Shown here piece after piece: positions 3,891 to 57,149 of a stretch of DNA of 64,000 bases. The first letter of the stretch is position 1; each line of letters begins with the position of its first letter. Position numbers and translations under genes: made by a program. Source of the DNA: an uncultured Gammaproteobacteria bacterium (lineage in GTDB: Bacteria; Patescibacteriota; Patescibacteriia; UBA1558; UBA10009); contig CAZPMS010000001.1 of NCBI GenBank assembly GCA_964588165.1, positions 164,722 to 228,721 on the forward strand, read 5' to 3'. The notes under the pieces are model-generated. The model saw nothing but the letters and a program-made list of their open reading frames with translations, ran no database searches and was not told the DNA's origin.

Positions 3891-5663
3891 TTATTTTTCA
3901 AACATAATACAACTATTATTATAAGAATTCATTATCTTTGCTCCAATATTATCAAAATCTTTAATATTTCTAACAGGATTTCTGACCCAAACACCATTTT
4001 CTCTATAATTTACCCATAATTTAAATACATTAAACTCAATCTCAAGAAAAGAATATTTAGTTTTATAAATAACCCTTTTCTTCGTAATTACTTCTTCAAC
4101 ATCTTTTATGCCTAATAAAAACCTTCTTATATTACCGAATAAATTATGAACTTCCATAATAACTCTTCTGTTAATTAATTCACCAAGCACATATTGGTCG
4201 CCGATTTTCCTCTTTAATAGTTTTCCTTTATTGATTAATCTTGAATTTACGTTAAAATTTATTTTTTCATACTTTAAATCAAAATTAAACTTAATATATC
4301 TAATTGACTCCGAATTTGAATCTAAACTTTGATTATTAAACTCATTTTTATTAATTGCAGGAATAGAACAGTATAACTTTAAATAATTTTTATAAACAAT
4401 AACTTTTTCAATAATTGACCTTATTATTTCCCTTTTTTGTTTAAAACTTAAACAGCTTAAAGAATTTTTATACTCAACTAATAATAATTTGTGAAAATTA
4501 TAACTTTTAAAATACAAATCCTTATCAATATAGCTATAAAGTGACTCTGGTCTAGTTAATAACTCTTTAACCTTATACCAAACAACATCATCAAGTATAC
4601 ATGTTCTAATTTGTATAGCTGGACATAATTTATCAGTTTTAAATTTTCTCTTATTAGTGCAAATATAATATTTAGTTCGATAAAAATGTTTTTTCTTAAA
4701 ATGGTTTTGTATTGATCTTGTATACGCGCGCCCACAAATGCCACATTTTAAAATTGAACGCAATAATGAATCACTAACTTTTTTAAAATTTTCTCTACTT
4801 TTAAATCTGCTATCTCTTATACTCTCTGCTCTAATAAAAACTTTTTTATCAATAATTTTGGGAACATTAATTTTTATCCAGTCTTCTTTCGGTCTTAAAA
4901 TTTTTCTAGCTCTAAATTTACTCCTGTCAGCATATTTCCTAAAATAAGTTTCACCAGTATACGCCTCATTTCTTAGTACGTGGTATATTGTATTCTGATC
5001 CCAAAATATTTTTTTATTTTTTTTCTTATGCGTACGCCTGTATGCATATTTTGTAGAAATTTTCATACCAATAATTGTTTTTTGTATTCTTCCTACGCCC
5101 ATACCTTTATTAATAAATAAATGATAAATTAGTTTTACTATCTCTGCTTCCTTTTTATTTATTATTAAATTTTTATTTTTTCTGTTGTAACCAAATGGGA
5201 CACTTCCGAACCAAGTACCTTTGTTCATAGATTTAATCATGCCGCCCACATTTCTTTCTTTGATAAGATTGCGTTCAAATTCAGCAAATGCTGATAATGT
5301 TGAAATAATTAATTTTCCAGTAGTTGTAGCTACTTCAAACGGCTCACTTACACTCCTTACTTCTATTCCTAAATTATTTAACTCGGCGATTAAATTTAAA
5401 AACATTATTTGATTCCGGGCTAATCTATCAATTCTATAAAAAACAAGGGCATCAAATTTTTTTTCTCTTGCTTCTTTTATTAATTGAGTTAATTGCGTTC
5501 TTTTTAATACATAGCCGCTCTCACCTTCCTCTCTAAATAATTTATAAAACTCCCAACCTTTTAATTCAATAAATTTTTTACAACTTTCAAACTGATTTTC
5601 TAAAGAAAATCCCTTAATTTGTTCGTCTGAGCTAACGCGGGTATATATTGCTGCTTTTTTCAT
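3891..5663 (-). CDS. Large serine recombinase (resolvase/invertase N-terminal catalytic domain plus recombinase domain and Cys-rich zinc ribbon)
   Basis: N-terminus MKKAAIYTRVSSDEQ carries the catalytic Ser motif of serine recombinases. 590 aa with Cys pairs (CGICG...C...C) typical of large serine recombinases/phage integrases. Confidence 0.85.
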   Translation of the reverse strand: MKKAAIYTRVSSDEQIKGFSLENQFESCKKFIELKGWEFYKLFREEGESGYVLKRTQLTQLIKEAREKKFDALVFYRIDRLARNQIMFLNLIAELNNLGIEVRSVSEPFEVATTTGKLIISTLSAFAEFERNLIKERNVGGMIKSMNKGTWFGSVPFGYNRKNKNLIINKKEAEIVKLIYHLFINKGMGVGRIQKTIIGMKISTKYAYRRTHKKKNKKIFWDQNTIYHVLRNEAYTGETYFRKYADRSKFRARKILRPKEDWIKINVPKIIDKKVFIRAESIRDSRFKSRENFKKVSDSLLRSILKCGICGRAYTRSIQNHFKKKHFYRTKYYICTNKRKFKTDKLCPAIQIRTCILDDVVWYKVKELLTRPESLYSYIDKDLYFKSYNFHKLLLVEYKNSLSCLSFKQKREIIRSIIEKVIVYKNYLKLYCSIPAINKNEFNNQSLDSNSESIRYIKFNFDLKYEKINFNVNSRLINKGKLLKRKIGDQYVLGELINRRVIMEVHNLFGNIRRFLLGIKDVEEVITKKRVIYKTKYSFLEIEFNVFKLWVNYRENGVWVRNPVRNIKDFDNIGAKIMNSYNNSCIMFEK

Positions 5664-6070: not shown

Positions 6071-7069
6071 TTAACTTACTACGGAAATCATCTCAACCAA
6101 TCTATTGGCATAACCCCATTCGTTATCATACCAAGAAATAATCTTCAATAAATCACCATCTACAACTTGGGTAAGTGATAAATCAACTATTGATGAATGC
6201 GAATTGCCGATAATATCAGAAGAAACAATCGGCTCTTCGGTAACTTCCAAAACATTTTTATAAAGCGGCATTTTGGCTGCGGCCTTAAAAGCTTCTATAA
6301 CTTCTTCTCTGGTGGTGGATTTTTCTAAAACAATAGTAAAATCGGAAAGTGAACCGGTTGGAGTAGGTACTCTAACTGACATGCCGTCAAATTTATTTTC
6401 CAGTTCCGGAATTGTTTCGGCTGTGGCTTTAGCTGCTCCGGTTGTGGTAGGAATAATATTAATTGCTGCGGCCCTGGCCCTTCTTAAATCCTTATGGGGT
6501 GAATCTACTATTCTCTGGTCAGCCGTATAAGAATGGATGGTGGTCATTAAAGCTTTTTTAATCCCCCACTTCCCCATTACCACAGCCATTACAGGAGCTA
6601 CGCAGTTGGTAGTACAAGAAGCATTATCTATAATTTCTTCACCATTATATTCTTTATCATTAACACCTAAAACTAAGGTTTTGGTTTCATTATCTTTAGA
6701 AGGTGCAGACATTATTACTTTTTTAGCGCCAGCCGTAAGGTGGGCACTAGCTGTTTCCTTGGTCCTAAAAACGCCGGTACATTCCAAAACAACATCAACT
6801 TCCAAATCCTTCCAAGGGAGCTTTGCCGGCTCTTTTATGGTTAGCGATTTTATTTTTTTGCCATCGACAATTAAATACTCTTTATCAGCTCCTATTGATT
6901 TGGCAAATTTGCCGTAAACAGAATCATACTTTAATAAATGAGCTAAGGTGTTATTATCAGTTAAATCATTAATGGCTACAACTTCTAAATTTTTATTTTC
7001 TACAGCTATTTTAAAGGCGGCTCGGCCAATACGGCCAAATCCGTTAATAGCTACTTTAATTTTTGCCAT
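6071..7069 (-). CDS. gap: Glyceraldehyde-3-phosphate dehydrogenase (type I)
   Basis: MAKIKVAINGFGRIGR NAD-binding N-terminus, catalytic SCTTNC region, 332 aa. Confidence 0.95.
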   Translation of the reverse strand: MAKIKVAINGFGRIGRAAFKIAVENKNLEVVAINDLTDNNTLAHLLKYDSVYGKFAKSIGADKEYLIVDGKKIKSLTIKEPAKLPWKDLEVDVVLECTGVFRTKETASAHLTAGAKKVIMSAPSKDNETKTLVLGVNDKEYNGEEIIDNASCTTNCVAPVMAVVMGKWGIKKALMTTIHSYTADQRIVDSPHKDLRRARAAAINIIPTTTGAAKATAETIPELENKFDGMSVRVPTPTGSLSDFTIVLEKSTTREEVIEAFKAAAKMPLYKNVLEVTEEPIVSSDIIGNSHSSIVDLSLTQVVDGDLLKIISWYDNEWGYANRLVEMISVVS

Positions 7070-7911: not shown

Positions 7912-7967
7912 ATATTAACAAATAAAAATTGATGAATAATGATTGATTAATTTTTAATTATTATTTT

Positions 7968-8663: not shown

Positions 8664-8679
8664 ATGGCACTAATAACCC

Positions 8680-8790
8680 ACCGATCTATCACTGATGAAG
8701 CGCTGATTAATCACTGATATTAATATCGGTGAGCCATCTGTGATATATCCGTGATAGCTCAGCGTATATCCGTGATTTATCCGTGGTACT
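8680..8790. repeat. Interspersed palindromic repeat element, copy A (inverted relative to copies B and C)
   Basis: Reverse complement of 8680-8765 is near-identical to 13270-13352 (gagctatcac(a/g)gatata...ctcaccgatattaatatcagtgattaatcagcgcttcatcagtgatagatcggtgg). The internal palindromes caccgat/atcggtg, tgattaatca and atattaatat, and three ~10-bp tatccgtgat sub-repeats, are all seen directly in the sequence. Confidence 0.8.
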
Positions 8791-10646: not shown

Positions 10647-11087
10647 TTGGAGTTACAAATGATCAAGAAATTGATAGTCAGCCTTGGCTGCCTAATACTC
10701 GTTGGCCTGCTGGTAAGCCTTTTTTTCGGCTCACAAATAGAAGGAATGTATAAATTTGTAACTACTTGCTATAGCTACTTTGACGCCGAAATGCAAACCG
10801 TAATAAATGACATGGTAATCTTTGGCGCCTCAATAGCATTAATATTTGCGGCAGTAATGGCATTTATTGGTAAAATGATTAAAGGAATTATCCCTCTTGG
10901 CTACTTTTTGATTTCGACAGCCATGATATGTTTCTCTTCTGTGTTTTTAAAAGTACCCGGAGGTTCGCTGGTGATGGTCGTACTTTTGGCCTCCTTTGGT
11001 ATTTCCAGTGTTATTTCCTTCTTATTGTTCTACCTAATATTTAGAACAATACCCAAACATAAACACCAATTATTCTACCCCGCTTGA
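10647..11087 (+). CDS. Small integral membrane protein (4 predicted TM), paralog 1 of a tandem family
   Basis: 146 aa, four hydrophobic segments, C-terminal KHKHQ...P motif shared with paralogs 2 and 3; followed by a hairpin terminator. Confidence 0.5.
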   Translation: MELQMIKKLIVSLGCLILVGLLVSLFFGSQIEGMYKFVTTCYSYFDAEMQTVINDMVIFGASIALIFAAVMAFIGKMIKGIIPLGYFLISTAMICFSSVFLKVPGGSLVMVVLLASFGISSVISFLLFYLIFRTIPKHKHQLFYPA

Positions 11088-11195
11088 AACAAAACGGGGT
11101 TTTTTCTTTGTTAAATAATTGACAAAATAATCAATTATAAACTAATATACTATATAAGCATAGAACATTCACAAGATAGATAAGGAGAAGTAAAG

Positions 11196-11636
11196 ATGAG
11201 GAAACAATGGTTTAAATTCGCCTTCGTCCTTGGGATACTGGTTATAATCGGATACTTTGTGTTCTCTCCAGTCATGGAGTGGTACAATGGTTTCAGTCAA
11301 TACAAACAAACATCTGCAATTCTTATCTTAACCTCTGCGTGTATTTCTGGCTTGATCATGGGTATAATCGTCGGCCTGAACACTAAGCAAAGTGAATTCT
11401 TAAAACCTGATAAATTGATTGCTAAACTTTTTATCTGGGAAGTGTTCGGTCTTGCGATTAGCTTTATTATTATTACTGGTTTTCTTTTTTTTGTAGATCG
11501 GATTAGCGGAGCTATTGAAATAGATATTATTCACATTTCCAGCTTTTCCATTATCTACTTAACCACTTCCTCCCTGGTCTATTTGATTAAGGAAACAATG
11601 TCAAAACATCACCAACCAATACTTGACCCTGTCTGA
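11196..11636 (+). CDS. Small integral membrane protein, paralog 2
   Basis: 146 aa, same architecture, C-terminal SKHHQPILDPV. GGAGAAG RBS. Its upstream roughly 100-bp promoter/UTR is near-identical to that of paralog 3. Confidence 0.5.
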   Translation: MRKQWFKFAFVLGILVIIGYFVFSPVMEWYNGFSQYKQTSAILILTSACISGLIMGIIVGLNTKQSEFLKPDKLIAKLFIWEVFGLAISFIIITGFLFFVDRISGAIEIDIIHISSFSIIYLTTSSLVYLIKETMSKHHQPILDPV

Positions 11637-11771
11637 TCTTTTCTATCCACAAATCCCCCCGTTTGGAAATTCAAGCGGGGTTTTTTCTTTGTTAAATAAT
11701 TGACAATATAAATTTTTTATAGTTAACTATCAATATAGAACATTCACAAACGTAGTGAGAAGGAGAAAACC

Positions 11772-12191
11772 ATGTTGATCAAATGGATTATCTACTTAGC
11801 TAGCCTTTTTGCTTTATTCCTATTCAAAGATCCCATATCATCTTTTGTAATAGATTCGTATGGTGATCTTAATCAAGTAGAACAAAAATTCATAACTGAT
11901 GGTTTTATATTTTGTGCGATCATTGGCATATTTAGTGCTACACTCACCGGTTTAGCACTTATTAAACCTCTAATTGATGTAAAAAGATGCCTTTATGCTG
12001 GAATAATACTGGGCTTAATATTTGGCTTCAGCCTTGGCATGACTTTTATCTCGTCCAAACAAAGCTTTAATATTGGTTTAACCGCTGGTTCAATATATCT
12101 TATAAGCCATTTAATTATTTTCTTCTCTATTTATTTAATAAATGAAACGGTAAAACACTATCGCCATAAGGCCCAGCCATTCCTAGTCTGA
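11772..12191 (+). CDS. Small integral membrane protein, paralog 3
   Basis: 139 aa, C-terminal VKHYRHKAQPFLV; AGGAGAA RBS; own promoter and terminator. Confidence 0.5.
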   Translation: MLIKWIIYLASLFALFLFKDPISSFVIDSYGDLNQVEQKFITDGFIFCAIIGIFSATLTGLALIKPLIDVKRCLYAGIILGLIFGFSLGMTFISSKQSFNIGLTAGSIYLISHLIIFFSIYLINETVKHYRHKAQPFLV

Positions 12192-12285
12192 AAGCAGTTC
12201 TATCCACTTACAACACCCTAAGTTATACAAAACTTGGGGGTTTTTCTTTTTAAAAAAATTAAATAAGTGATATAATGAATTTTGT

Positions 12286-12681
12286 ATGAAACAATCTTTT
12301 TGGCAAAATTTGCCCATTTTAAGATTTTTAGCCGGCTTTTGGGGCTGGGTTACCATGCTCCTGTTTATTGTTGATTTTTTTAGCCACCATCTGCTTTCTG
12401 AAGGTATAACTACGGCAGCTGTAATTTATGGCGCTATTTTAGCTATGTACGCAGGCTCTAAAGAATACAAGCGTTGGCAACAAAAAAAGAACTATAAATC
12501 CGACCATTTTGGTGAACTATATATTATTACCTGGACCCTGGTAATGGTAATCTTTGTGGCTTTAACCTTTTTACTTAGCGGTTACTACAAAATCCCCGGT
12601 GAATTTCCAGCTGTTTATTTAACAGTTTTATCAGTTTTTATCCTTTCCAGGGAATCCAAATCATTTATTGCTAAAAGTTAA
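12286..12681 (+). CDS. Small integral membrane protein, a divergent fourth member of the array
   Basis: 131 aa, 3-4 TM segments, preceded by a hairpin plus T-run terminator of the previous unit. Confidence 0.4.
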   Translation: MKQSFWQNLPILRFLAGFWGWVTMLLFIVDFFSHHLLSEGITTAAVIYGAILAMYAGSKEYKRWQQKKNYKSDHFGELYIITWTLVMVIFVALTFLLSGYYKIPGEFPAVYLTVLSVFILSRESKSFIAKS

Positions 12682-12690
12682 TTATCAATA

Positions 12691-12765
12691 GCTCACCGAT
12701 ATTAATATCAGTGATTAATCAGCGCTTCATCAGTGATAGATCGGTGGTTTATCAGTGACTATAGT
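12691..12765. repeat. Interspersed palindromic repeat element, copy B (direct with copy C)
   Basis: gctcaccgatattaatatcagtgattaatcagcgcttcatcagtgatagatcggtggtttatcagt, identical over about 70 bp to 13290-13358. Confidence 0.8.
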
Positions 12766-12821
12766 TTGACTCATAGTAAATAATTGATTAAAATCAAATA
12801 AATAATTAATCAAAAGCGATT

Positions 12822-13247
12822 ATGATGTCTAAAAACAAGCCTCTTTTTTTGTTGGAGGAAAAATTAACTTACAAATTAAGAGGGATTTTTATTGAAATTA
12901 GTAAACAACATGGTTGTTTATTTAAAGAAAAGGTCTATCAAAAAATAATTATTGATGAATTTCAAAATAAAAACGTTAAATTTGAATCCCAGCCAAGAAT
13001 TTCTATATATAACTTAATTACAGGTAAAGAAATTGGTTACTATTCCCCAGATTTTCTAGTAGAAAATAAAGTAATTGTCGAAATAAAAGCTCAGGGTCAA
13101 ATCTATAATAGTCATATTAATCAACTGATTAAATACTTAAATTCTACAAAATTTGAAATTGGACTAATAGTGAACTTCGGAACTCCAATGGTTCAAATTA
13201 TTAGAAAAATATTTACAAACGACAAAAAATCATTTATTCACAAATAA
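12822..13247 (+). CDS. GxxExxY-family / PD-(D/E)XK nuclease-like small protein
   Basis: HGCLFKEKVYQK (G..E..Y-like) motif plus PDFLVENKVIVEIKA (D...E.K) typical of the GxxExxY PD-(D/E)XK family. 141 aa. Flanked by direct repeat copies B and C. Confidence 0.5.
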   Translation: MMSKNKPLFLLEEKLTYKLRGIFIEISKQHGCLFKEKVYQKIIIDEFQNKNVKFESQPRISIYNLITGKEIGYYSPDFLVENKVIVEIKAQGQIYNSHINQLIKYLNSTKFEIGLIVNFGTPMVQIIRKIFTNDKKSFIHK

Positions 13248-13358
13248 ATCACAGATATTCACGGAGCTATCACAGATATACCACAGATGGCTCACCGATA
13301 TTAATATCAGTGATTAATCAGCGCTTCATCAGTGATAGATCGGTGGTTTATCAGTAGT
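13247..13358. repeat. Interspersed palindromic repeat element, copy C. It includes three atcacagata sub-repeats and lies just 5' of the rpmE promoter.
   Basis: Sequence identity to copy B and to the reverse complement of copy A. A TTGACA-17-TAGAAT promoter for rpmE follows at about 13355-13385. Confidence 0.8.
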
Positions 13359-13399
13359 TACTTGACAAAAAATACTATTTAAACTAGAATGTAAGCCAT

Positions 13400-13708
13400 A
13401 TGAAAAAAGAAATCCATCCAGAATACCATAAAGATGCCAACATAAAATGTGCTTGTGGCAATGTTTTTAAGGTTGGTTCAACCCAAAAAGAAATAGAAGT
13501 GGAAATCTGTTCTGCTTGCCATCCTTTTTATACTGGCAAACAAAAATTGGTTGATACGGCCGGTATGGTTGATAAATTTAAAGCCAGGGCCGCTAAGCAA
13601 GAAAAAGTTGCTTCCAGCAGAAAAGGCAAAAAAGTTAAAAAAGCCAAAGCCAAGGCGAAAAAAGACGCTGACGCCAAAGCTTCTGACAAAAAAAAGGATA
13701 AAAAATAA
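13400..13708 (+). CDS. rpmE: 50S ribosomal protein L31 (Zn-ribbon type) with a Lys/Ala-rich C-terminal extension
   Basis: [10 protein letters not shown]...CACGN...[13 protein letters not shown] matches L31. The tail [23 protein letters not shown] is an extension. Confidence 0.9.
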
Positions 13709-13851
13709 CAGTTTATTTTTAATAAAAAGTTCTTGTAATTCAGGAACTTTTTTGTATTTTATGATAGAATAATAATTGATGACTAATAATTAATAACTGA
13801 TTAAATCTGTGAAATACCTTTGCGATTTTATCATTTTGCGTTTTTGCGATT

Positions 13852-24326: not shown

Positions 24327-24409
24327 TATTACCCTACTAGCTACTTACCTACCTGCTACTAGCTAATTAACATAGACACAACTCAACTAATTTTATATAC
24401 TTCAAACAT

Positions 24410-27165: not shown

Positions 27166-27234
27166 GATTATTAATGAATGATGACTGATGATTAGCAATT
27201 AATCATTGATCATCAATTATTAATTTTTAACATT

Positions 27235-29375: not shown

Positions 29376-29429
29376 TATCTGCGAAATATCCGCGGGTCAT
29401 CCGCGGGTCATCCGCGGGTCATCCGCGAT

Positions 29430-39071: not shown

Positions 39072-39236
39072 AATAAACCTATTTTACCCTTTTTTACCCT
39101 TTTTTTCAATCAAATTTTTAAAAATTTTGTTTTTTTGATATACTAATATAACCTATATAACCTAACTAAATAATTAGGATGCTAGAATGCCAGTTTTATT
39201 ACCTCCTTACATTCTAGCCTCCTTACATTCTAATTT

Positions 39237-40069: not shown

Positions 40070-40162
40070 GACGTCATTCTGAGCTTTAGCGAAGAATCCC
40101 ATTAAACAGGCAACGTCGCTAAACAATGGGATCCTTCGGTTGTCCCTCCCTCAGGATGACAT
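40070..40162. repeat. Long imperfect palindrome, family GTCATTSYGAG...CTCRSAATGAC (copy 1)
   Basis: cgtcattctgagc...gaagaatcccatt | aatgggatccttcg...ctcaggatgac, with arms that are reverse complements of each other. Related copies at 43709-43795 and 46952-47075. Confidence 0.7.
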
Positions 40163-40192
40163 TGAAAAATTTGGGTTTCAAAAAATAAAAAT

Positions 40193-40714: not shown

Positions 40715-40737
40715 GGTTAATATAAAATACTTGTTAA

Positions 40738-40768
40738 GCCGACGGTTTTACACCGTCGGTTCTTTTTT
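40738..40768 (+). terminator. Intrinsic terminator of folA (gccgacggtttt aca ccgtcgg + T6)
   Basis: 8-bp GC-rich stem followed by TTCTTTTTT. Confidence 0.7.
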
Positions 40769-40794
40769 ACAAAAATAAATTATAAAAAAGACAA

Positions 40795-41140
40795 GCCCGC
40801 AACTTTTCTTTGGATGACCAGGGGGTTATCCATTGAAGTTTGCGGGCTTTTTTGCTGCTTATAGGCGCTGTGTGTCACTTGTTATTAGAAGTAGCCTCCT
40901 CGTGAGGCACATGTGATGTCACACAGAACTTAATGAACCTGTTCGCAGCAACTGCAGCGCTTCCTGACTTTCTCAGCCCCGTAGAGTTCCTCTCCTAAGG
41001 AGAGGTTCTGATTGTCGGTGGAACTTTTGGCCATTGAGGCGGTACAGGCTTTTGCCTGTAAAAGTGTGGAAGCTGCTCGGAAATAAATAATTCCATAGAG
41101 ACGTATGATTCGTCTCTTAAATAAGCAATATAATGATCGG
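40795..41140 (-). ncRNA. Candidate ncRNA transcription unit A, minus strand, about 350 nt. It has a TTGACA-16-TATAGT promoter at 41148-41180 and a nested hairpin plus U-run terminator at 40790-40855.
   Basis: No ORF of 60 aa or more in any frame. GC well above background. Multiple local hairpins (cctctcc/ggagagg, acaggc/gcctgt, agagacg/cgtctct). Identity unknown; no tmRNA or RNase P signatures were seen by eye. Confidence 0.35.
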
Positions 41141-41196
41141 GGATATTTACTATAGCATACTTAAATTATTTGTCAACCCTTTATTTTAAGTAAAAA

Positions 41197-41770
41197 AAGA
41201 CCGCCGTTTTTCCTAAGAAAAACGGCGGCTTCGCGGGCTGGCTGGTATACCGTACTTTTGGCCACGTCGCCTCTAATGGGCGGCGAAATGCCTGTATCGG
41301 CTACCTGTTGTGTATCGGCTGTGTGCCGAATTTGCGATCTTTGCCGATCCGATTTCCGGAACTTTCGCCAGGATTGTGCTTTCCCTGGCGGATAGATCGC
41401 TGTAAACCAGCATCGCTGTTGTACTTGCCGTCACTGTTTTAACGGCTCCCTTTCTGGCCTAGTTCCACTAACGTTTTCGTCATTGTCATAAATGACAAAT
41501 CATTGATAACGCAGTGACTTCTGGCAATTTGCGGTTGAACGCCTACGCGTTTTTTTCATGGATTTAACCATGTGCCAACAGTGACAACTACCGGTGTTCA
41601 TCCGGTCAGAAGAGGATCAACGCCTTTTCTGAATGTTCCGGAACGATGATTGGAAAGCATAGCTCTCCCGTCTCGATTTCGCACTCCCTAAGGAGTGGTA
41701 CCCAAACGTCCTTCGCGGACTGGGATTTTCAAATAACAATATTGCAGTGTATCACAATATTAAAATATTG
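41197..41770 (-). ncRNA. Candidate ncRNA transcription unit B, minus strand, about 550 nt. It has a TTGACA-17-TACACT promoter at about 41765-41795 and a 12-bp-stem terminator (gccgccgttttt/aaaaacggcggc + U-run) at 41197-41240.
   Basis: ORF-free, GC-elevated and hairpin-dense (gtcc-gcgaa-ggac, cactcc-ttag-ggagtg, ccagg...cctgg, aacgc-gtag-gcgtt). Might alternatively be a structured 3' UTR of the kinase gene. Confidence 0.3.
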
Positions 41771-41831
41771 TCAAGGGCTAATTTATGAATAAATATTACT
41801 TTTGCCTAATATTAGCCAAATTTAATTAATT

Positions 41832-43670: not shown

Positions 43671-43708
43671 GTAAGCTCGCTGGTTTTTCATTTAAAAAAT
43701 CTTACACT

Positions 43709-43795
43709 TTCGTCATTCCGAGCAAGGCCGAGGAATCCCGTAATTAATATCGTACATAAGTAATGGGATCCTTCGACTCCGCTCAGGATGACAAG
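43709..43795. repeat. Long imperfect palindrome, family GTCATTSYGAG (copy 2)
   Basis: cgtcattccgagc...gaggaatcccgt | aatgggatccttcg...ctcaggatgaca. The arms are conserved with copy 1 while the central loop differs. Confidence 0.7.
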
Positions 43796-43824
43796 TTGGG
43801 AGTAAGATTTTTTTATTTAGAGAA

Positions 43825-45012: not shown

Positions 45013-45092
45013 GCTTTTTTACTTTCTAGGATGCGAGAAGGTTAGTATGCCAGTTTCCTGACATTCTGACATTCTGACATTCTTAATTTTAT

Positions 45093-46094: not shown

Positions 46095-46164
46095 AATAAT
46101 TATTACTAAAAATTGAAAATTAATGATTAATTAACTAATTTATAAATCATTATTCATCATTAAA

Positions 46165-46350: not shown

Positions 46351-46552
46351 ATTTTTAGTGTTACCCTGAACCTGGCAAAATCATAGTTTAGGGCTAATAT
46401 TAGCGATTTTTGAGATTTTTAAAAAGCCCTTTCTGGGCTGATGTAAGAAATATACCATATTAATTTAAATATGGCAATACTTTTCCACAGTTCCCTCTTG
46501 ACGATATTACTAGTTATGTTATTATTTAGATAGTTGTCTAAATATCTAAATA

Positions 46553-46656
46553 CTACAAATTACTAATCTATACAAATATACTAATAATTCCAATTCGTAT
46601 ATTTAGTAACTATTGGTAGATTAGTATATTAGTAATAATTCGTAATTAGTAATTGT
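46553..46656. repeat. TACTAAT/ATTCGTAT-rich intergenic element, copy 1 (immediately 5' of the ArsR-family gene)
   Basis: attactaatctatacaaatatactaataatt..aattcgtatatttagtaa...agtaataattcgtaattagtaat. Closely related to 49566-49640 and 56053-56132. Confidence 0.75.
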
Positions 46657-46947
46657 ATGACATTAAATAATACTTTTAAGGCTTTATCTGACCCTACCCG
46701 CAGGAAAATCTTGGAACTTCTGAAAAAAAAAGATATGTCGGCCGGCGCTATTGCCGAGCATTTTAAGATTACCCTACCCTCTTTAACCCACCATTTTAAT
46801 ATTTTAAAGCAGGCTGATTTAATTACCCAAGAAAGGCAGGGCCAACAAATAATCTATTCACTAAACTTAACTGTTTTAGATGAATTAATTGATAAATATT
46901 TTAATTTGTTTTCCGCCAAAGGCGGATCGGCCTCTGGTCGAAAATAA
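46657..46947 (+). CDS. ArsR/SmtB-family transcriptional regulator (SdpR-like)
   Basis: LSDPTRRKILELL...AIAEHFKITLPSLTHHFNILKQADL winged-HTH signature. Confidence 0.75.
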   Translation: MTLNNTFKALSDPTRRKILELLKKKDMSAGAIAEHFKITLPSLTHHFNILKQADLITQERQGQQIIYSLNLTVLDELIDKYFNLFSAKGGSASGRK

Positions 46948-46951
46948 TAAA

Positions 46952-47075
46952 AGCCTTGCCCCACTGTCATTGCGAGGAGCACTAGCGACGAAGCAATCTC
47001 ACACATTTCTAGCTAAAACAAATTAGATTGCCACACTCCTTTCAGTCGCTCGCAATGACCGCTAGGCAAGGCTTA
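46952..47075. repeat. Long imperfect palindrome related to the GTCATTSYGAG family (copy 3)
   Basis: gccttgcc..tgtcattgcgag... | ...ctcgcaatgacc..ggcaaggc; about 120 bp of dyad symmetry between the regulator and the SdpI-like gene. Confidence 0.6.
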
Positions 47076-47091
47076 CCTAACAACTAACTAT

Positions 47092-47739
47092 ATGAAATTC
47101 ACATTCAAAACCGAAATTATTCCCATTCTAATTATTTTAATTTCAATTGGACTGGGGTTCTATTTCTATTCTGCCTTCCCTGATACTGTCCCTGTTCATT
47201 GGGGCGTAAATGGTGAAGTTGATAGATGGGGATCTAAATTTGAAGGAGCCTGGCTAATGCCGATGATTGCAGTTGGCATGTATGTTTTATTTTTGGTGCT
47301 GCCACTGATTGACCCGAAAAAAGAAAAATACCAGCAATTTTTTAAAGTCTATTTGATGTTTAGGACGTTGATACTGTTGATGATGTTCGGCATCTACTTA
47401 ATAGCTTCCTTAAACACTTTAGGCTACAACGTTAGGGTAGAGGTTTGGATACCGGTAGCGATTGGACTTTTGTTTTTGATAATGGGCAACTACATGGGCA
47501 AACTTAAAGCCAATTGGTTTATGGGCATTAGAACTCCTTGGACCTTATCTTCTGATGAAGTTTGGAATAAAACCCATAGGCTTGGCGGCAAAATGTTTAT
47601 GATCCTTGGTGTGTTGTTGATGATCACTCCCCTTCTGCCTTACAGTAATATATTTTTGACTGTGGTAATGCCGGTTTTAATTGTAGGGCTGGTGCCGGTT
47701 GTTTATTCTTTTGTTCTCTATAAAAAAATTAAGAAATAA
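47092..47739 (+). CDS. SdpI/YhfL-family membrane protein (DUF1648 plus SdpI immunity-like domain)
   Basis: VPVHWGVNGEVDRWGSK matches the DUF1648 motif; 6 TM segments; paired with an ArsR-type regulator as in sdpR-sdpI. Confidence 0.6.
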   Translation: MKFTFKTEIIPILIILISIGLGFYFYSAFPDTVPVHWGVNGEVDRWGSKFEGAWLMPMIAVGMYVLFLVLPLIDPKKEKYQQFFKVYLMFRTLILLMMFGIYLIASLNTLGYNVRVEVWIPVAIGLLFLIMGNYMGKLKANWFMGIRTPWTLSSDEVWNKTHRLGGKMFMILGVLLMITPLLPYSNIFLTVVMPVLIVGLVPVVYSFVLYKKIKK

Positions 47740-49558: not shown

Positions 49559-49565
49559 ATCTTTT

Positions 49566-49638
49566 CTACAAATTACTAATTACTACTAATATACAAATAA
49601 TTCGTATATTTGTACAGATTCATAACTAGTAGTAATAA

Positions 49639-56047: not shown

Positions 56048-56052
56048 AATAA

Positions 56053-56132
56053 GTCTACGAATTACTAATCTATACGAATATACTAATAATTTGTAATTCG
56101 TATATTAGTAATTATTCGTACATTAGTAGTAA
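56053..56132. repeat. TACTAAT/ATTCGTAT-rich intergenic element, copy 3 (fills the 85-bp pheS-pheT spacer)
   Basis: ctacgaattactaatctatacgaatatactaataatttgtaattcgtatattagtaattattcgtacattagtagtaat. Confidence 0.75.
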
Positions 56133-57149
56133 TCAAAATTGTTTTAAAAATCTTAAATCGCCGGATAAAAACAGGCGGATATCATTAATGCCGTATTTCA
56201 TCATGGCCAGCCTGGTTAAACCTAAGCCAAAAGCAAAACCGGAATATTCTTTGGGATCCAAACCCCCGTATTCCAAAACTTTTGGATGAACCAAGCCGCT
56301 ACCTATCATCTCTATCCAGCCGGTTTGTTTACAAACGCTACAGCCTTGACCATTGCAAAAAATACAGCTGCAATCCATTTCAAAACCGGGCTCTACAAAA
56401 GGAAAATAACCTGGCCTAAGCCTTACTTTTATATCTTTCTTAAAAATACCTTTTAACATTTCTTTCATGGTGGCTACTAAATTTGCCACCGAAATATCTT
56501 TACCTATCATTAGGCCTTCCAATTGATAAAAGGTTGTATCATGAGAAGTATCTGTGGCCTCGTATCTATAAACCCTGCCGGGAAAAACAACCCTTAGCGG
56601 TGCGCCATATTTTTCTATAGCCCTAACTTGTTGATTAGAAGTATGGGTTCGCATAACCCAACTTGGCTTATCTTTAATATAAAAAGTATCCATTGTATCA
56701 CGAGCCGGATGAGTTGCCGGAATATTTAAAGCTTCAAAATTATAATACTCTGATTCCAATTCCGGGCCTTCTATAACCATAAAGCCCATCTTGGCAAAAA
56801 CATCCTCCAATTGCTCTTTTACAACGGTAATTGGGTGCAAGCTACCAACATCTTTTTTAATTCCGGGCAAAGTTACATCTAACTGAACACCGGACTTGCC
56901 GGTGCTTTGGCCCAGTTCTAACTTAACCTGATCCACAAAATTTTCCAAATCAGTTTTAATTTCGTTAGCCAGCTGGCCGATCTTTGGTTTTTCTTCTTTA
57001 GCCAAATCTTTAAGCCCACGTAAAACTTTGGTCAACTCCCCTTTCCTACCCAAATACTTGCTCTCAAGTTTTTTGAGTTCTTCGGAAGACTTTATTTTTT
57101 TGAATTCAGCTAAAGCTTTTTCTTTTAATTTTTTTATTTGTTGCTCCAT
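56133..57149 (-). CDS. pheS: Phenylalanyl-tRNA synthetase alpha subunit
   Basis: Class II motifs (FPGRVYRYEA, GLGLTRLAMM); 338 aa. Confidence 0.95.
   Translation of the reverse strand: MEQQIKKLKEKALAEFKKIKSSEELKKLESKYLGRKGELTKVLRGLKDLAKEEKPKIGQLANEIKTDLENFVDQVKLELGQSTGKSGVQLDVTLPGIKKDVGSLHPITVVKEQLEDVFAKMGFMVIEGPELESEYYNFEALNIPATHPARDTMDTFYIKDKPSWVMRTHTSNQQVRAIEKYGAPLRVVFPGRVYRYEATDTSHDTTFYQLEGLMIGKDISVANLVATMKEMLKGIFKKDIKVRLRPGYFPFVEPGFEMDCSCIFCNGQGCSVCKQTGWIEMIGSGLVHPKVLEYGGLDPKEYSGFAFGLGLTRLAMMKYGINDIRLFLSGDLRFLKQF

Follow-up and report, generated by a model that had tools for sequence, protein, structure and literature searches.

A dispersed palindromic element with four-heptamer arms at stop/start junctions of Patescibacteria and Bacteroidota genes

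A stretch of 64,000 nucleotides (nt) from an uncultured member of the Patescibacteriota (GenBank assembly GCA_964588165.1, contig CAZPMS010000001.1, positions 164,722 to 228,721; hereafter the window) carries three copies of a short palindromic element, each ending a few nt from a start codon. In the reading which we favour, and to which we give about an even chance, the element is a dispersed palindrome resembling a MITE (miniature inverted-repeat transposable element) or a hairpin-forming doublet of repetitive extragenic palindromic (REP) sequences (REPIN); its arms of four heptamers are putative binding sites of a conserved protein, and it lands, or survives, at stop/start junctions. Small dispersed palindromic repeats as such are known; what is new is that a four-heptamer arm is kept across phyla and that it docks tightly to start and stop codons.

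The three copies were located where an initial annotation of the window had placed them (Table 1), and the inverted TACNAAT/ATTNGTA words described there proved to be their common design. An arm of four TACNAAT words with spacers of 0, 3, and 1 nt (TACNAAT TACNAAT nnn TACNAAT n TACNAAT, mostly with a C or T in front) is followed by a variable loop of 0-110 nt and by the inverted arm (ATTNGTA n ATTNGTA nnn ATTNGTA ATTNGTA), the ends of the element reading YTAC ... GTAR. A repeat search of the window assigned 46553-46589, 49566-49602, and 56055-56091 to one repeat family with 86-95% identity; copies 1 and 3 are identical at 35 of 37 nt, free positions included. The long identical run that had been noticed before was recovered as the 29-nt sequence TACTAATCTATACRAATATACTAATAATT, present exactly twice in the window (0.00 expected), and TACNAATNNNTACNAAT occurs five times, every one within the three copies (0.02 expected). 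When a profile of 169 arms from other genomes was run against the 64 kb, six arms were matched with E-values from 1e-8 to 3e-3; beyond these six arms of the three copies, no further match below E = 1 was found in the window. In copies 2 and 3 the right arm shows slight degeneracy, and copy 1 has three additional inner words. With 80-104 nt, two inverted 32-nt arms, and no ORF within the window copies, the element fits a MITE, a non-coding element below 300 bp with terminal inverted repeats. Orientation on the plus strand is identical in all three copies, which means that copy 1 is inverted with respect to its own downstream gene, compared with copies 2 and 3.

To survey the family, species representatives of the Genome Taxonomy Database (GTDB) were scanned with TACNAATTACTAATNNNTACNAAT, which yielded at least 116 stretches; the family statistics given below derive from, and hold among, these matches listed. 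The arm-bearing loci, at least 116, are from Patescibacteria and from Bacteroidota/Ignavibacteria. The Patescibacteria carriers are Yanofsky-, Doudna-, Komeili-, Giovannoni-, Morani-, Nomura-, Falkow-, Howlett-, and Saccharibacteria, among others, and several genomes contribute three to seven loci each. Because some of the Bacteroidota matches lie on megabase-scale contigs, contamination by small contigs of the Candidate Phyla Radiation (CPR) is ruled out as an explanation. A tolerant search of the listed loci returned 236 arms, which form 69 paired elements versus 35 single arms in Patescibacteria, and 51 single arms versus 6 paired elements in Bacteroidota/Ignavibacteria, where ACACAG often stands on the inner side of the arm. 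The full arm had no match in 2.9 million viral contigs, where a shorter pattern matched once, in a non-canonical tandem, and BLAST searches of plasmid and phage collections gave no match to the element. No Rfam family overlapped an element, be it at the gathering threshold on the whole window, in E-value mode on copy 1, or in 16 related loci. Full-text literature searches with word strings and on CPR, MITE, REP, and heptamer topics returned no description of the element. At a few Bacteroidota/Ignavibacteria loci (L053 6130-6476, L045 5926-6028, L074 4849-4920, and L115 ~5355), the arm or a lone TACTAAT is amplified head-to-tail with a period of 32 nt or 7 nt; one of these arrays is broken by an assembly gap.

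The preference for the 5′ ends of genes that had been proposed from the three copies holds for the family: of 242 arms, 98 have a start codon no more than 25 nt from their end (peak at 5-9 nt), and the start codons near the outer (...GTAR) end of an arm belong to genes reading away from it. The distance from outer end to start codon has a median of 8 nt in CPR and 5 nt in members of the Fibrobacteres-Chlorobi-Bacteroidetes (FCB) group. Among the remaining 144 arms, 74 have their outer end a few nt from a stop codon whose gene reads toward the arm (CPR median, 5 nt). Paired elements occupy co-directional spacers, adjoining a start and an end in 33 cases versus two start/start and one end/end. 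Polarity is strict in single arms: 49 of 72 outer ends but 3 of 72 inner ends are found no more than 15 nt from a gene boundary. That single arms serve starts and stops about equally is as expected for the terminus of an insert, and that arms adjoin stops about as often as starts is not the behavior of an operator or of a pure 5′ leader. At one Giovannonibacteria locus (L044), the spc/S10 ribosomal-protein operon has arms at seven junctions in the space of 8 kb; complete two-armed elements stand at five of these, all five in one orientation. Genes downstream of arms represent 127 Pfam families among 85 proteins and include those for S7, S3, L18, S17, EF-Tu, EF-Ts, RRF, GatB, RecA, DnaA, DnaE, and PGK; a regulon was rejected as an explanation in view of this diversity of housekeeping genes.

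What is conserved in the arms is the words rather than the pairing between them. Four words with the fixed 0/3/1 spacers are present in 180 of 236 arms, and in these canonical-length arms the 24 word positions are 87-100% conserved (median ~97%), whereas the eight free positions (four word centers, the 3-nt spacer, and the 1-nt spacer) carry 0.2-0.7 bits; G and T predominate at the word center. Across 43 paired elements, complementarity between arms at the free positions did not exceed that of shuffled partners, and positions 11 and 15-17 were even less complementary between arms than chance. The predicted RNA hairpins differ widely in strength, from L059 (−31 kcal/mol, z −8) and L072 (−27 kcal/mol, z −5) through window copies 1 (−24.1 kcal/mol, z −3.2), 3 (−22.4 kcal/mol, z −3.8), and 2 (−18.9 kcal/mol, z −1.7) to the L044 operon copy (−8 kcal/mol, z −1.0), in which all words are intact though each word center is mismatched. 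The intact words of the latter, despite mismatched centers, indicate that the word array is the conserved object, which points to sequence-specific recognition by a protein. RNA structure was thus rejected as the conserved feature, because the free positions lack covariation and the L044 copies barely fold; the compensatory changes typical of a structured cis-regulatory RNA were not observed, and no Rfam family matches. A mild polarity with respect to the gene was noticed at word W2, which is mostly ATTAGTA on the start side and mostly TACGAAT on the end side (base at the center in TAC orientation: T 22 and G 7 in start-side arms, G 21 and T 8 in end-side arms). A promoter function of the arm was also considered and rejected, since it holds at best a −10-like TATATT and no consistent −35; the Bacteroidota promoter box TAnnTTTG matches only the minority ATTTGTA words, and no conserved box was found upstream of the ACACAG preceding Bacteroidota arms.

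Comparison with relatives suggests how the element is gained or lost. The window is syntenic, at ~70-74% nt identity, with a Patescibacteria metagenome-assembled genome (MAG; L067) and also with Candidatus Komeilibacteria L013. In L067 (~72% nt identity), the orthologue of the ArsR-type gene that follows copy 1 has kept its promoter (TTGACT-16-TATTAT) and a conserved dyad, TTTAGAYAGTTRTCTAAATATCTAAAT (4443-4471), which lies directly against the ATG, and it has no element; the window has a single extra block of 104 nt exactly at the dyad/ATG point, which makes the L067 site an empty one. The junctions read CTAAA-TA-insert-TA-TG in the window and CTAAAT-TA-TG in L067, which is compatible with a duplication of TA in genomes that are ~28% divergent; on either side, the base next to the element is R and seems to belong to the element itself. 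At the pheS-pheT junction, occupied by copy 3, the spacer is only 1-12 nt long in about half (~40 of 80) of the metagenomic pheS relatives (54-74% amino acid identity), and filled and empty junctions are too diverged to be aligned for an exact target-site duplication. In this unbiased sample (437 kb), 6 of 80 loci have arms, and occurrence among relatives is patchy; as L162/L165 and L182/L186 are the same sequence by contig identity, the six loci were taken as four genomes. L123, the closest pheS relative, has a TACNAAT element in the spacer, and many other relatives have different, lineage-specific word palindromes of 70-230 nt there. Such variety at a single junction suggests that operon junctions of this kind have been colonized repeatedly. 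The palindromes of L126, L132, L136, L141, L149, L153, L160, L163, L171, L182, L188, and L202 are unrelated to one another, with words such as TAGGTTGTAG, CGTGTAT, CACGAAT, ATACTAAT, GTTTCAAG, AACACGTAAC, CGCGAAT, and AACGAAT, among others. In the Doudnabacteria genome JACQJI01, four copies (L014, L056, L081, and L121) have an identical loop and different flanks. Where inverted arm pairs lie 0.2-2 kb apart in the 116 8-kb loci, the genes always read outward from the arms.

Multiple dispersed copies combined with presence or absence between relatives, a hallmark of MITEs, are therefore documented by three copies in 64 kb, at least 116 loci, the empty ArsR site of L067, and the short pheS-pheT spacers. 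The MITE raised in the initial annotation is borne out in its small size, inverted repeats, and bias to gene ends, with the target-site duplication only a possibility; random placement together with such duplications, which had been named as the signature of a plain MITE, was not found as a whole, placement being strongly non-random. Like bacterial MITEs, for example the Correia elements of Neisseria, the element is small, intergenic, and co-transcribed, has terminal inverted repeats and no ORF, is present or absent between relatives, and has a possible TA target. It differs from them in that each arm is made up of four 7-bp sub-repeats whose central base is free, that starts and stops lie within a few nt, and that no parent insertion sequence was found in the 116 8-kb loci. 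The likeness to REPINs and bacterial interspersed mosaic elements (BIMEs) is that of non-coding, dispersed hairpin doublets of ~70-110 nt, which are extragenic, mostly between co-directional genes and co-transcribed with their neighbors, which exist in many copies per genome and persist for long, and whose outer end reads ...GTAG; as in a REPIN, the inverted doublet can be folded as one hairpin (strong in L059 and L072, weak in L044). The REP unit, however, is a GC-rich palindrome of 20-40 bp with an unpaired GTAG or CGTC tag (PMC3733652), whereas the arm described here is an AT-rich series of four direct heptamers that is not self-complementary, and its GTAG arises only from the last word and a following G. 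REPINs and BIMEs are mobilized by REP-associated tyrosine transposases (RAYTs), none of which was seen in the 8-kb loci. REP families have been reported mainly from Proteobacteria, unlike the present element of Patescibacteria and Bacteroidota, and a search of the REP/REPIN literature gave no paper mentioning Patescibacteria. In placement, the closest published analogue found is the TAACTGA heptamer repeats directly upstream of starts in Beggiatoaceae, Cyanobacteria, and Bacteroidetes (MacGregor 2015, PMC4679880). Heptamer tandem repeats of this kind, which also include the short tandemly repeated repetitive (STRR) sequences of cyanobacteria, share with the element the 7-nt unit, the several copies a few nt upstream of starts, the presence in Bacteroidetes, and the spread across distant phyla; they differ in the word itself and in being open-ended tandem arrays, whereas the element has a fixed set of four words spaced 0/3/1, comes in Patescibacteria mostly with a second, inverted arm, and also adjoins stops. 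Uninterrupted tandem arrays of its words exist only in the few Bacteroidota/Ignavibacteria loci named above.

In a mechanism that would fit the dispersed palindrome, the heptamer array and not the hairpin would be the conserved unit, as a putative binding site of a conserved trans-acting protein which copies or inserts the element, and copies would land, or survive, only in the few nt from a stop to the next start or just before a start. Because of its location between stop and start, the element is transcribed with the flanking genes. As the host genome is poor in Shine-Dalgarno (SD) sites (GGAG, GAGG, or AGGA within 22 nt upstream in just 14 of 66 window genes, the leaders being mostly plain A/T-rich), an AT-rich, ATG-free, and stop-rich insert would be tolerated as an extra leader or intercistronic spacer. 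Mobility via a word-recognizing protein and near-neutrality for the host are both what we infer, and a host role in translation or coupling may exist. Several observations weigh against a mobile palindrome. MITE families are normally genus-specific (PMC11602168), unlike the arms described here, which are conserved across two phyla; neither an arm-flanked transposase nor an autonomous element was present in the 116 8-kb loci; and the TA duplication at the ArsR junction, judged across 28% divergence, is a mere possibility. Four junctions have the element in both of two diverged species, with words intact and spacers or loops changed or replaced (the window and L067 share it at gyrB/corA, L024 and L072 upstream of tuf, L049 and L066 upstream of rpsG, which encodes S7, and L078 and L084 at one junction); the gyrB/corA element of L067, at 6488-6616, has the words of copy 2 and a different loop. 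The free positions are nearly randomized (identity 0.45 within a genome versus 0.35 between genomes), the 169-arm profile detected no decayed relics in the window, and a partner arm is near-perfect (80 of 108 have 0-2 mismatches) or else absent, with few in between, a bimodality that is partly due to ascertainment because the search began from one intact arm. Shared junctions, randomized free positions, lack of relics, and bimodal partners fit purifying selection on the words in situ, and hence a host function, at least as well as they fit repeated insertion; they are also compatible with recurrent insertion at favored junctions and fast deletion of dead copies in streamlined genomes.

Such a host function would be that of a cis-acting RNA: AUUNGUA four times before AUG and UACNAAU four times after the stop would form an SD-independent platform for initiation or translational coupling, or an intercistronic processing site, to which a conserved factor, for instance bS1 or an OB-fold protein of the cold-shock type, would bind, and the 5′ arm would mask the start until the terminating ribosome opens the stem. 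We regard this as possible but on the unlikely side. It would account for the SD-like distance between outer arm end and start, for the prevalence of start/end pairs in co-directional spacers, and for elements in essential, highly expressed operons (spc/S10 in L044, tuf, rpsG), and it agrees with the words kept at four orthologous junctions while loops change and no relics are left, with some polarity of W2 and the single orientation of the paired L044 copies, and with the scarcity of SD sites in the genome. There is also a precedent, the TAACTGA repeats before start codons having been proposed as sites of a translational regulator (PMC4679880). The same outer end of single arms, however, adjoins stops nearly as often as starts, which places the opposite RNA sequence in the 3′-UTR; the element is missing at the orthologous ArsR gene and at roughly half of the pheT orthologues, its occurrence among relatives is patchy, the genes downstream belong to no specific class, and the hairpins, at −8 to −31 kcal/mol, are too varied for one structural mechanism to suit every copy. 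Lineages with TAACTGA repeats likewise use SD sites sparingly. The more specific proposal that the four-heptamer array is a protein-bound signal for SD-independent initiation or coupling in Patescibacteria and Bacteroidota, a transferable “ribosome landing pad” of mobile-like spread that is kept by selection, appears rather doubtful to us.

The other explanations are far less probable. The initial annotation suggested a shared operator, perhaps bound by the adjacent ArsR-like factor. Under this explanation, the ArsR/SdpR-like factor would control a small regulon of ArsR-SdpI, corA, and pheT. Copy 1 does sit between the promoter and the ATG of the ArsR-type gene, and the element has dyad symmetry, but L067 retains promoter and separate dyad without any element, and the element stands beside unrelated genes in at least 100 loci of two phyla. 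Moreover, copies 2 and 3 are intercistronic, in operons that have their best promoter-like match upstream, with at most a weak promoter-like match (9/12) at an element, and copy 1 lies downstream of the −10 hexamer. ArsR/SmtB operators have a 12-2-12 form, unlike the arms, which are 32-bp arrays of four direct repeats; an operator of this factor is next to negligible as an explanation. A recombination site like attC, with the palindromes marking the boundaries of gene cassettes and serving a recombinase in the insertion and excision of genes at operon junctions, is improbable. Integron cassette arrays have the same geometry, that is, stop, a few nt, imperfect palindrome, a few nt, and start of a co-directional gene, and attC sites, too, are imperfect palindromes (57-141 nt) with an ORF's stop immediately on one side and the following start on the other. 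At one unusual locus, L123, a whole junction including the element is duplicated around a 141-aa ORF between pheS and pheT. The flanking genes, however, are not cassettes but belong to the core and keep a conserved order (ribosomal proteins, pheST, tuf), the GTTRRRY/RYYYAAC core and the R/L box consensus are lacking, no integrase was seen nearby, and the L123 duplication takes in 17 nt of pheT coding sequence, for which homologous recombination or mis-assembly is possible. We give as little credence to convergence among local simple-sequence leaders, in which replication slippage would make AT-rich word arrays before starts in SD-poor genomes. Many spacers in the window and in relatives do have lineage-specific word repeats directly upstream of starts, and L045, L053, L074, and L115 have tandem word arrays; the identical four-word arm with fixed 0/3/1 spacing at 100 or more loci speaks against slippage, as do the similarity of copies 1 and 3 in their free positions, the identical loops with different flanks within one genome, and the ArsR-site difference in the form of a single 104-nt block. 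No arrays graded in word number or spacing were found at orthologous sites.

The duplicated junction of L123 (2230-2313 and 2768-2877) has the form TGAAAATCAC-element-GTT-ATGAAAGTTTCCCTAAA, flanks an ORF without a Pfam hit, and could be either recombination at the element or metagenome mis-assembly.

The gene context given in the initial annotation (ArsR-like gene, corA, and pheT) was upheld by ORF and Pfam annotation (Table 1). Copy 1 ends 5 nt before the ATG of the ArsR-type ORF, and the σ70-like promoter upstream places it inside the 5′-UTR. The dyad stretch between promoter and element is, from the sequence, a better candidate operator for the ArsR/SdpR-like protein than the element itself. 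Copy 2 makes up the entire 80-nt spacer from the gyrB stop (49639) to the corA start (49558) and is equally tight on the 3′ end of the former and the 5′ end of the latter; copy 3 makes up the entire 85-nt spacer from the pheS stop (56133) to the pheT start (56047). Near the pheS operon, the best promoter-like match is upstream of the operon, at 57677-57649; within the pheS-pheT spacer, nothing promoter-like reads toward pheT, and in copy 2 just a weak match (9/12) reads toward corA. Copies 2 and 3 are thus most simply regarded as intercistronic RNA, and the notion of a transcribed leader or spacer stands for all three copies, copy 1 being downstream of a promoter. The exact ArsR protein is encoded on 17 public metagenome contigs, some of which look marine, judged by their names; the upstream sequence was identical in the six compared. 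DUF5671 is among the genes neighboring the ArsR-type gene.

Table 1. Positions of the three copies, their parts, and features around copy 1 in the window
Feature	Position	Strand	Description
Copy 1	46553-46656	+	104 nt; absent from the orthologous site in L067
Copy 1, left arm	46554-46585	+	TACAAAT TACTAAT cta TACAAAT a TACTAAT
Copy 1, extra inner words	46593-46599; 46601-46608; 46612-46618	+	ATTCGTA; ATTTAGTA; ATTGGTA
Copy 1, canonical right arm	46620-46651	+	ATTAGTA t ATTAGTA ata ATTCGTA ATTAGTA; then attgt, ATG at 46657
Copy 2	49559-49638	+	fills spacer from gyrB stop to corA start, both genes on the minus strand
Copy 2, left arm	49567-49598		8 nt from corA ATG
Copy 2, right arm	49600-49631		degenerate; adjoins gyrB stop
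Copy 3	56048-56132	+	fills spacer from pheS stop to pheT start, minus-strand operon
Copy 3, left arm	56056-56087		8 nt from pheT ATG
Copy 3, right-hand words	56089-56129		pheS stop codon (tca, 56133-56135) 3 nt beyond their end
σ70-like promoter	46498-46525	+	TTGACG-16-TATTAT, TG before the −10 hexamer, 10/12 matches; outside the element
Dyad stretch	46524-46552	+	TAGATA (46527-46532)/TATCTA (46543-46548), interval from promoter to element; outside the element
ArsR/SdpR-like helix-turn-helix gene	46657-46947	+	HTH_20 3e-13, HTH_5 7e-12
SdpI-family gene	47092-47739		follows the ArsR/SdpR-like gene; SdpI 1.7e-23

Other repeats were observed in the window. Heptamer palindromes of CACNGAT/ATCNGTG (8664-8790, 12688-12757, and 13248-13355) have the same 3+N+3 design as TACNAAT, with arms 91-96% complementary between copies, and lie directly after stops or before a start; apart from this family, word palindromes of the 3+N+3 type were only found as a few singletons elsewhere in the loci compared. 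GC-richer, REP-like palindromes (GTCATT(C/G)CGAGGAG...CGACGAAGCAATC...) are located at 40070-40170, 43700-43810, and 46950-47075, one of them between the ArsR-like and SdpI genes. Their motif is also present in L063, L120, and L171, in L120 (a Bacteroidetes scaffold) beside TACNAAT arms, and is thus a second repeat common to Patescibacteria and Bacteroidetes. Word-repeat spacers precede starts at 29376-29429, 45040-45092, 7912-7967, 13775-13851, 27180-27234, 46095-46164, 24327-24375, and 39170-39236, with words such as GTCATCCGCGG (3.5 times), GACATTCT (three times), TGATGA/ATTAAT words, and CTACTAGCTA; L067 has different words at the same junctions. A region of 1.1 kb (40715-41831) contains no ORF of at least 50 aa and several GC-rich inverted repeats, has an apparently higher G+C content than its surroundings, and gave no Rfam match at gathering score or with a convincing E-value; a large RNA that has escaped annotation and a gene in decay are both conceivable. 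Five consecutive plus-strand ORFs of ~130-146 aa (10659-13708), at least three of which are preceded by near-identical blocks of terminator plus promoter (AAACGGGGTTTTTTCTTTGTTAAATAATTGACAA...), look like a tandem array.

Patescibacteria genomes are small and tightly packed, and dispersed repeats in their essential operons are therefore unexpected. Yet operons for ribosomal proteins, tuf, pheST, and gyrB have spacers taken up by an 80-nt repeat, and the same 32-nt array is found in Bacteroidota. The arm is a simple, searchable marker (TACNAATTACNAATNNNTACNAATNTACNAAT), and for gene callers and operon predictors it means that a gap of 80-100 nt in such genomes is not necessarily a promoter or terminator. 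Were the element selfish, a mobilizing enzyme of conserved specificity would have to be common to, or exchanged between, two very different phyla, and it would insert at stop/start junctions without killing essential operons. Were it functional, gene expression would have a new general signal in bacteria that are not dependent on Shine-Dalgarno pairing.

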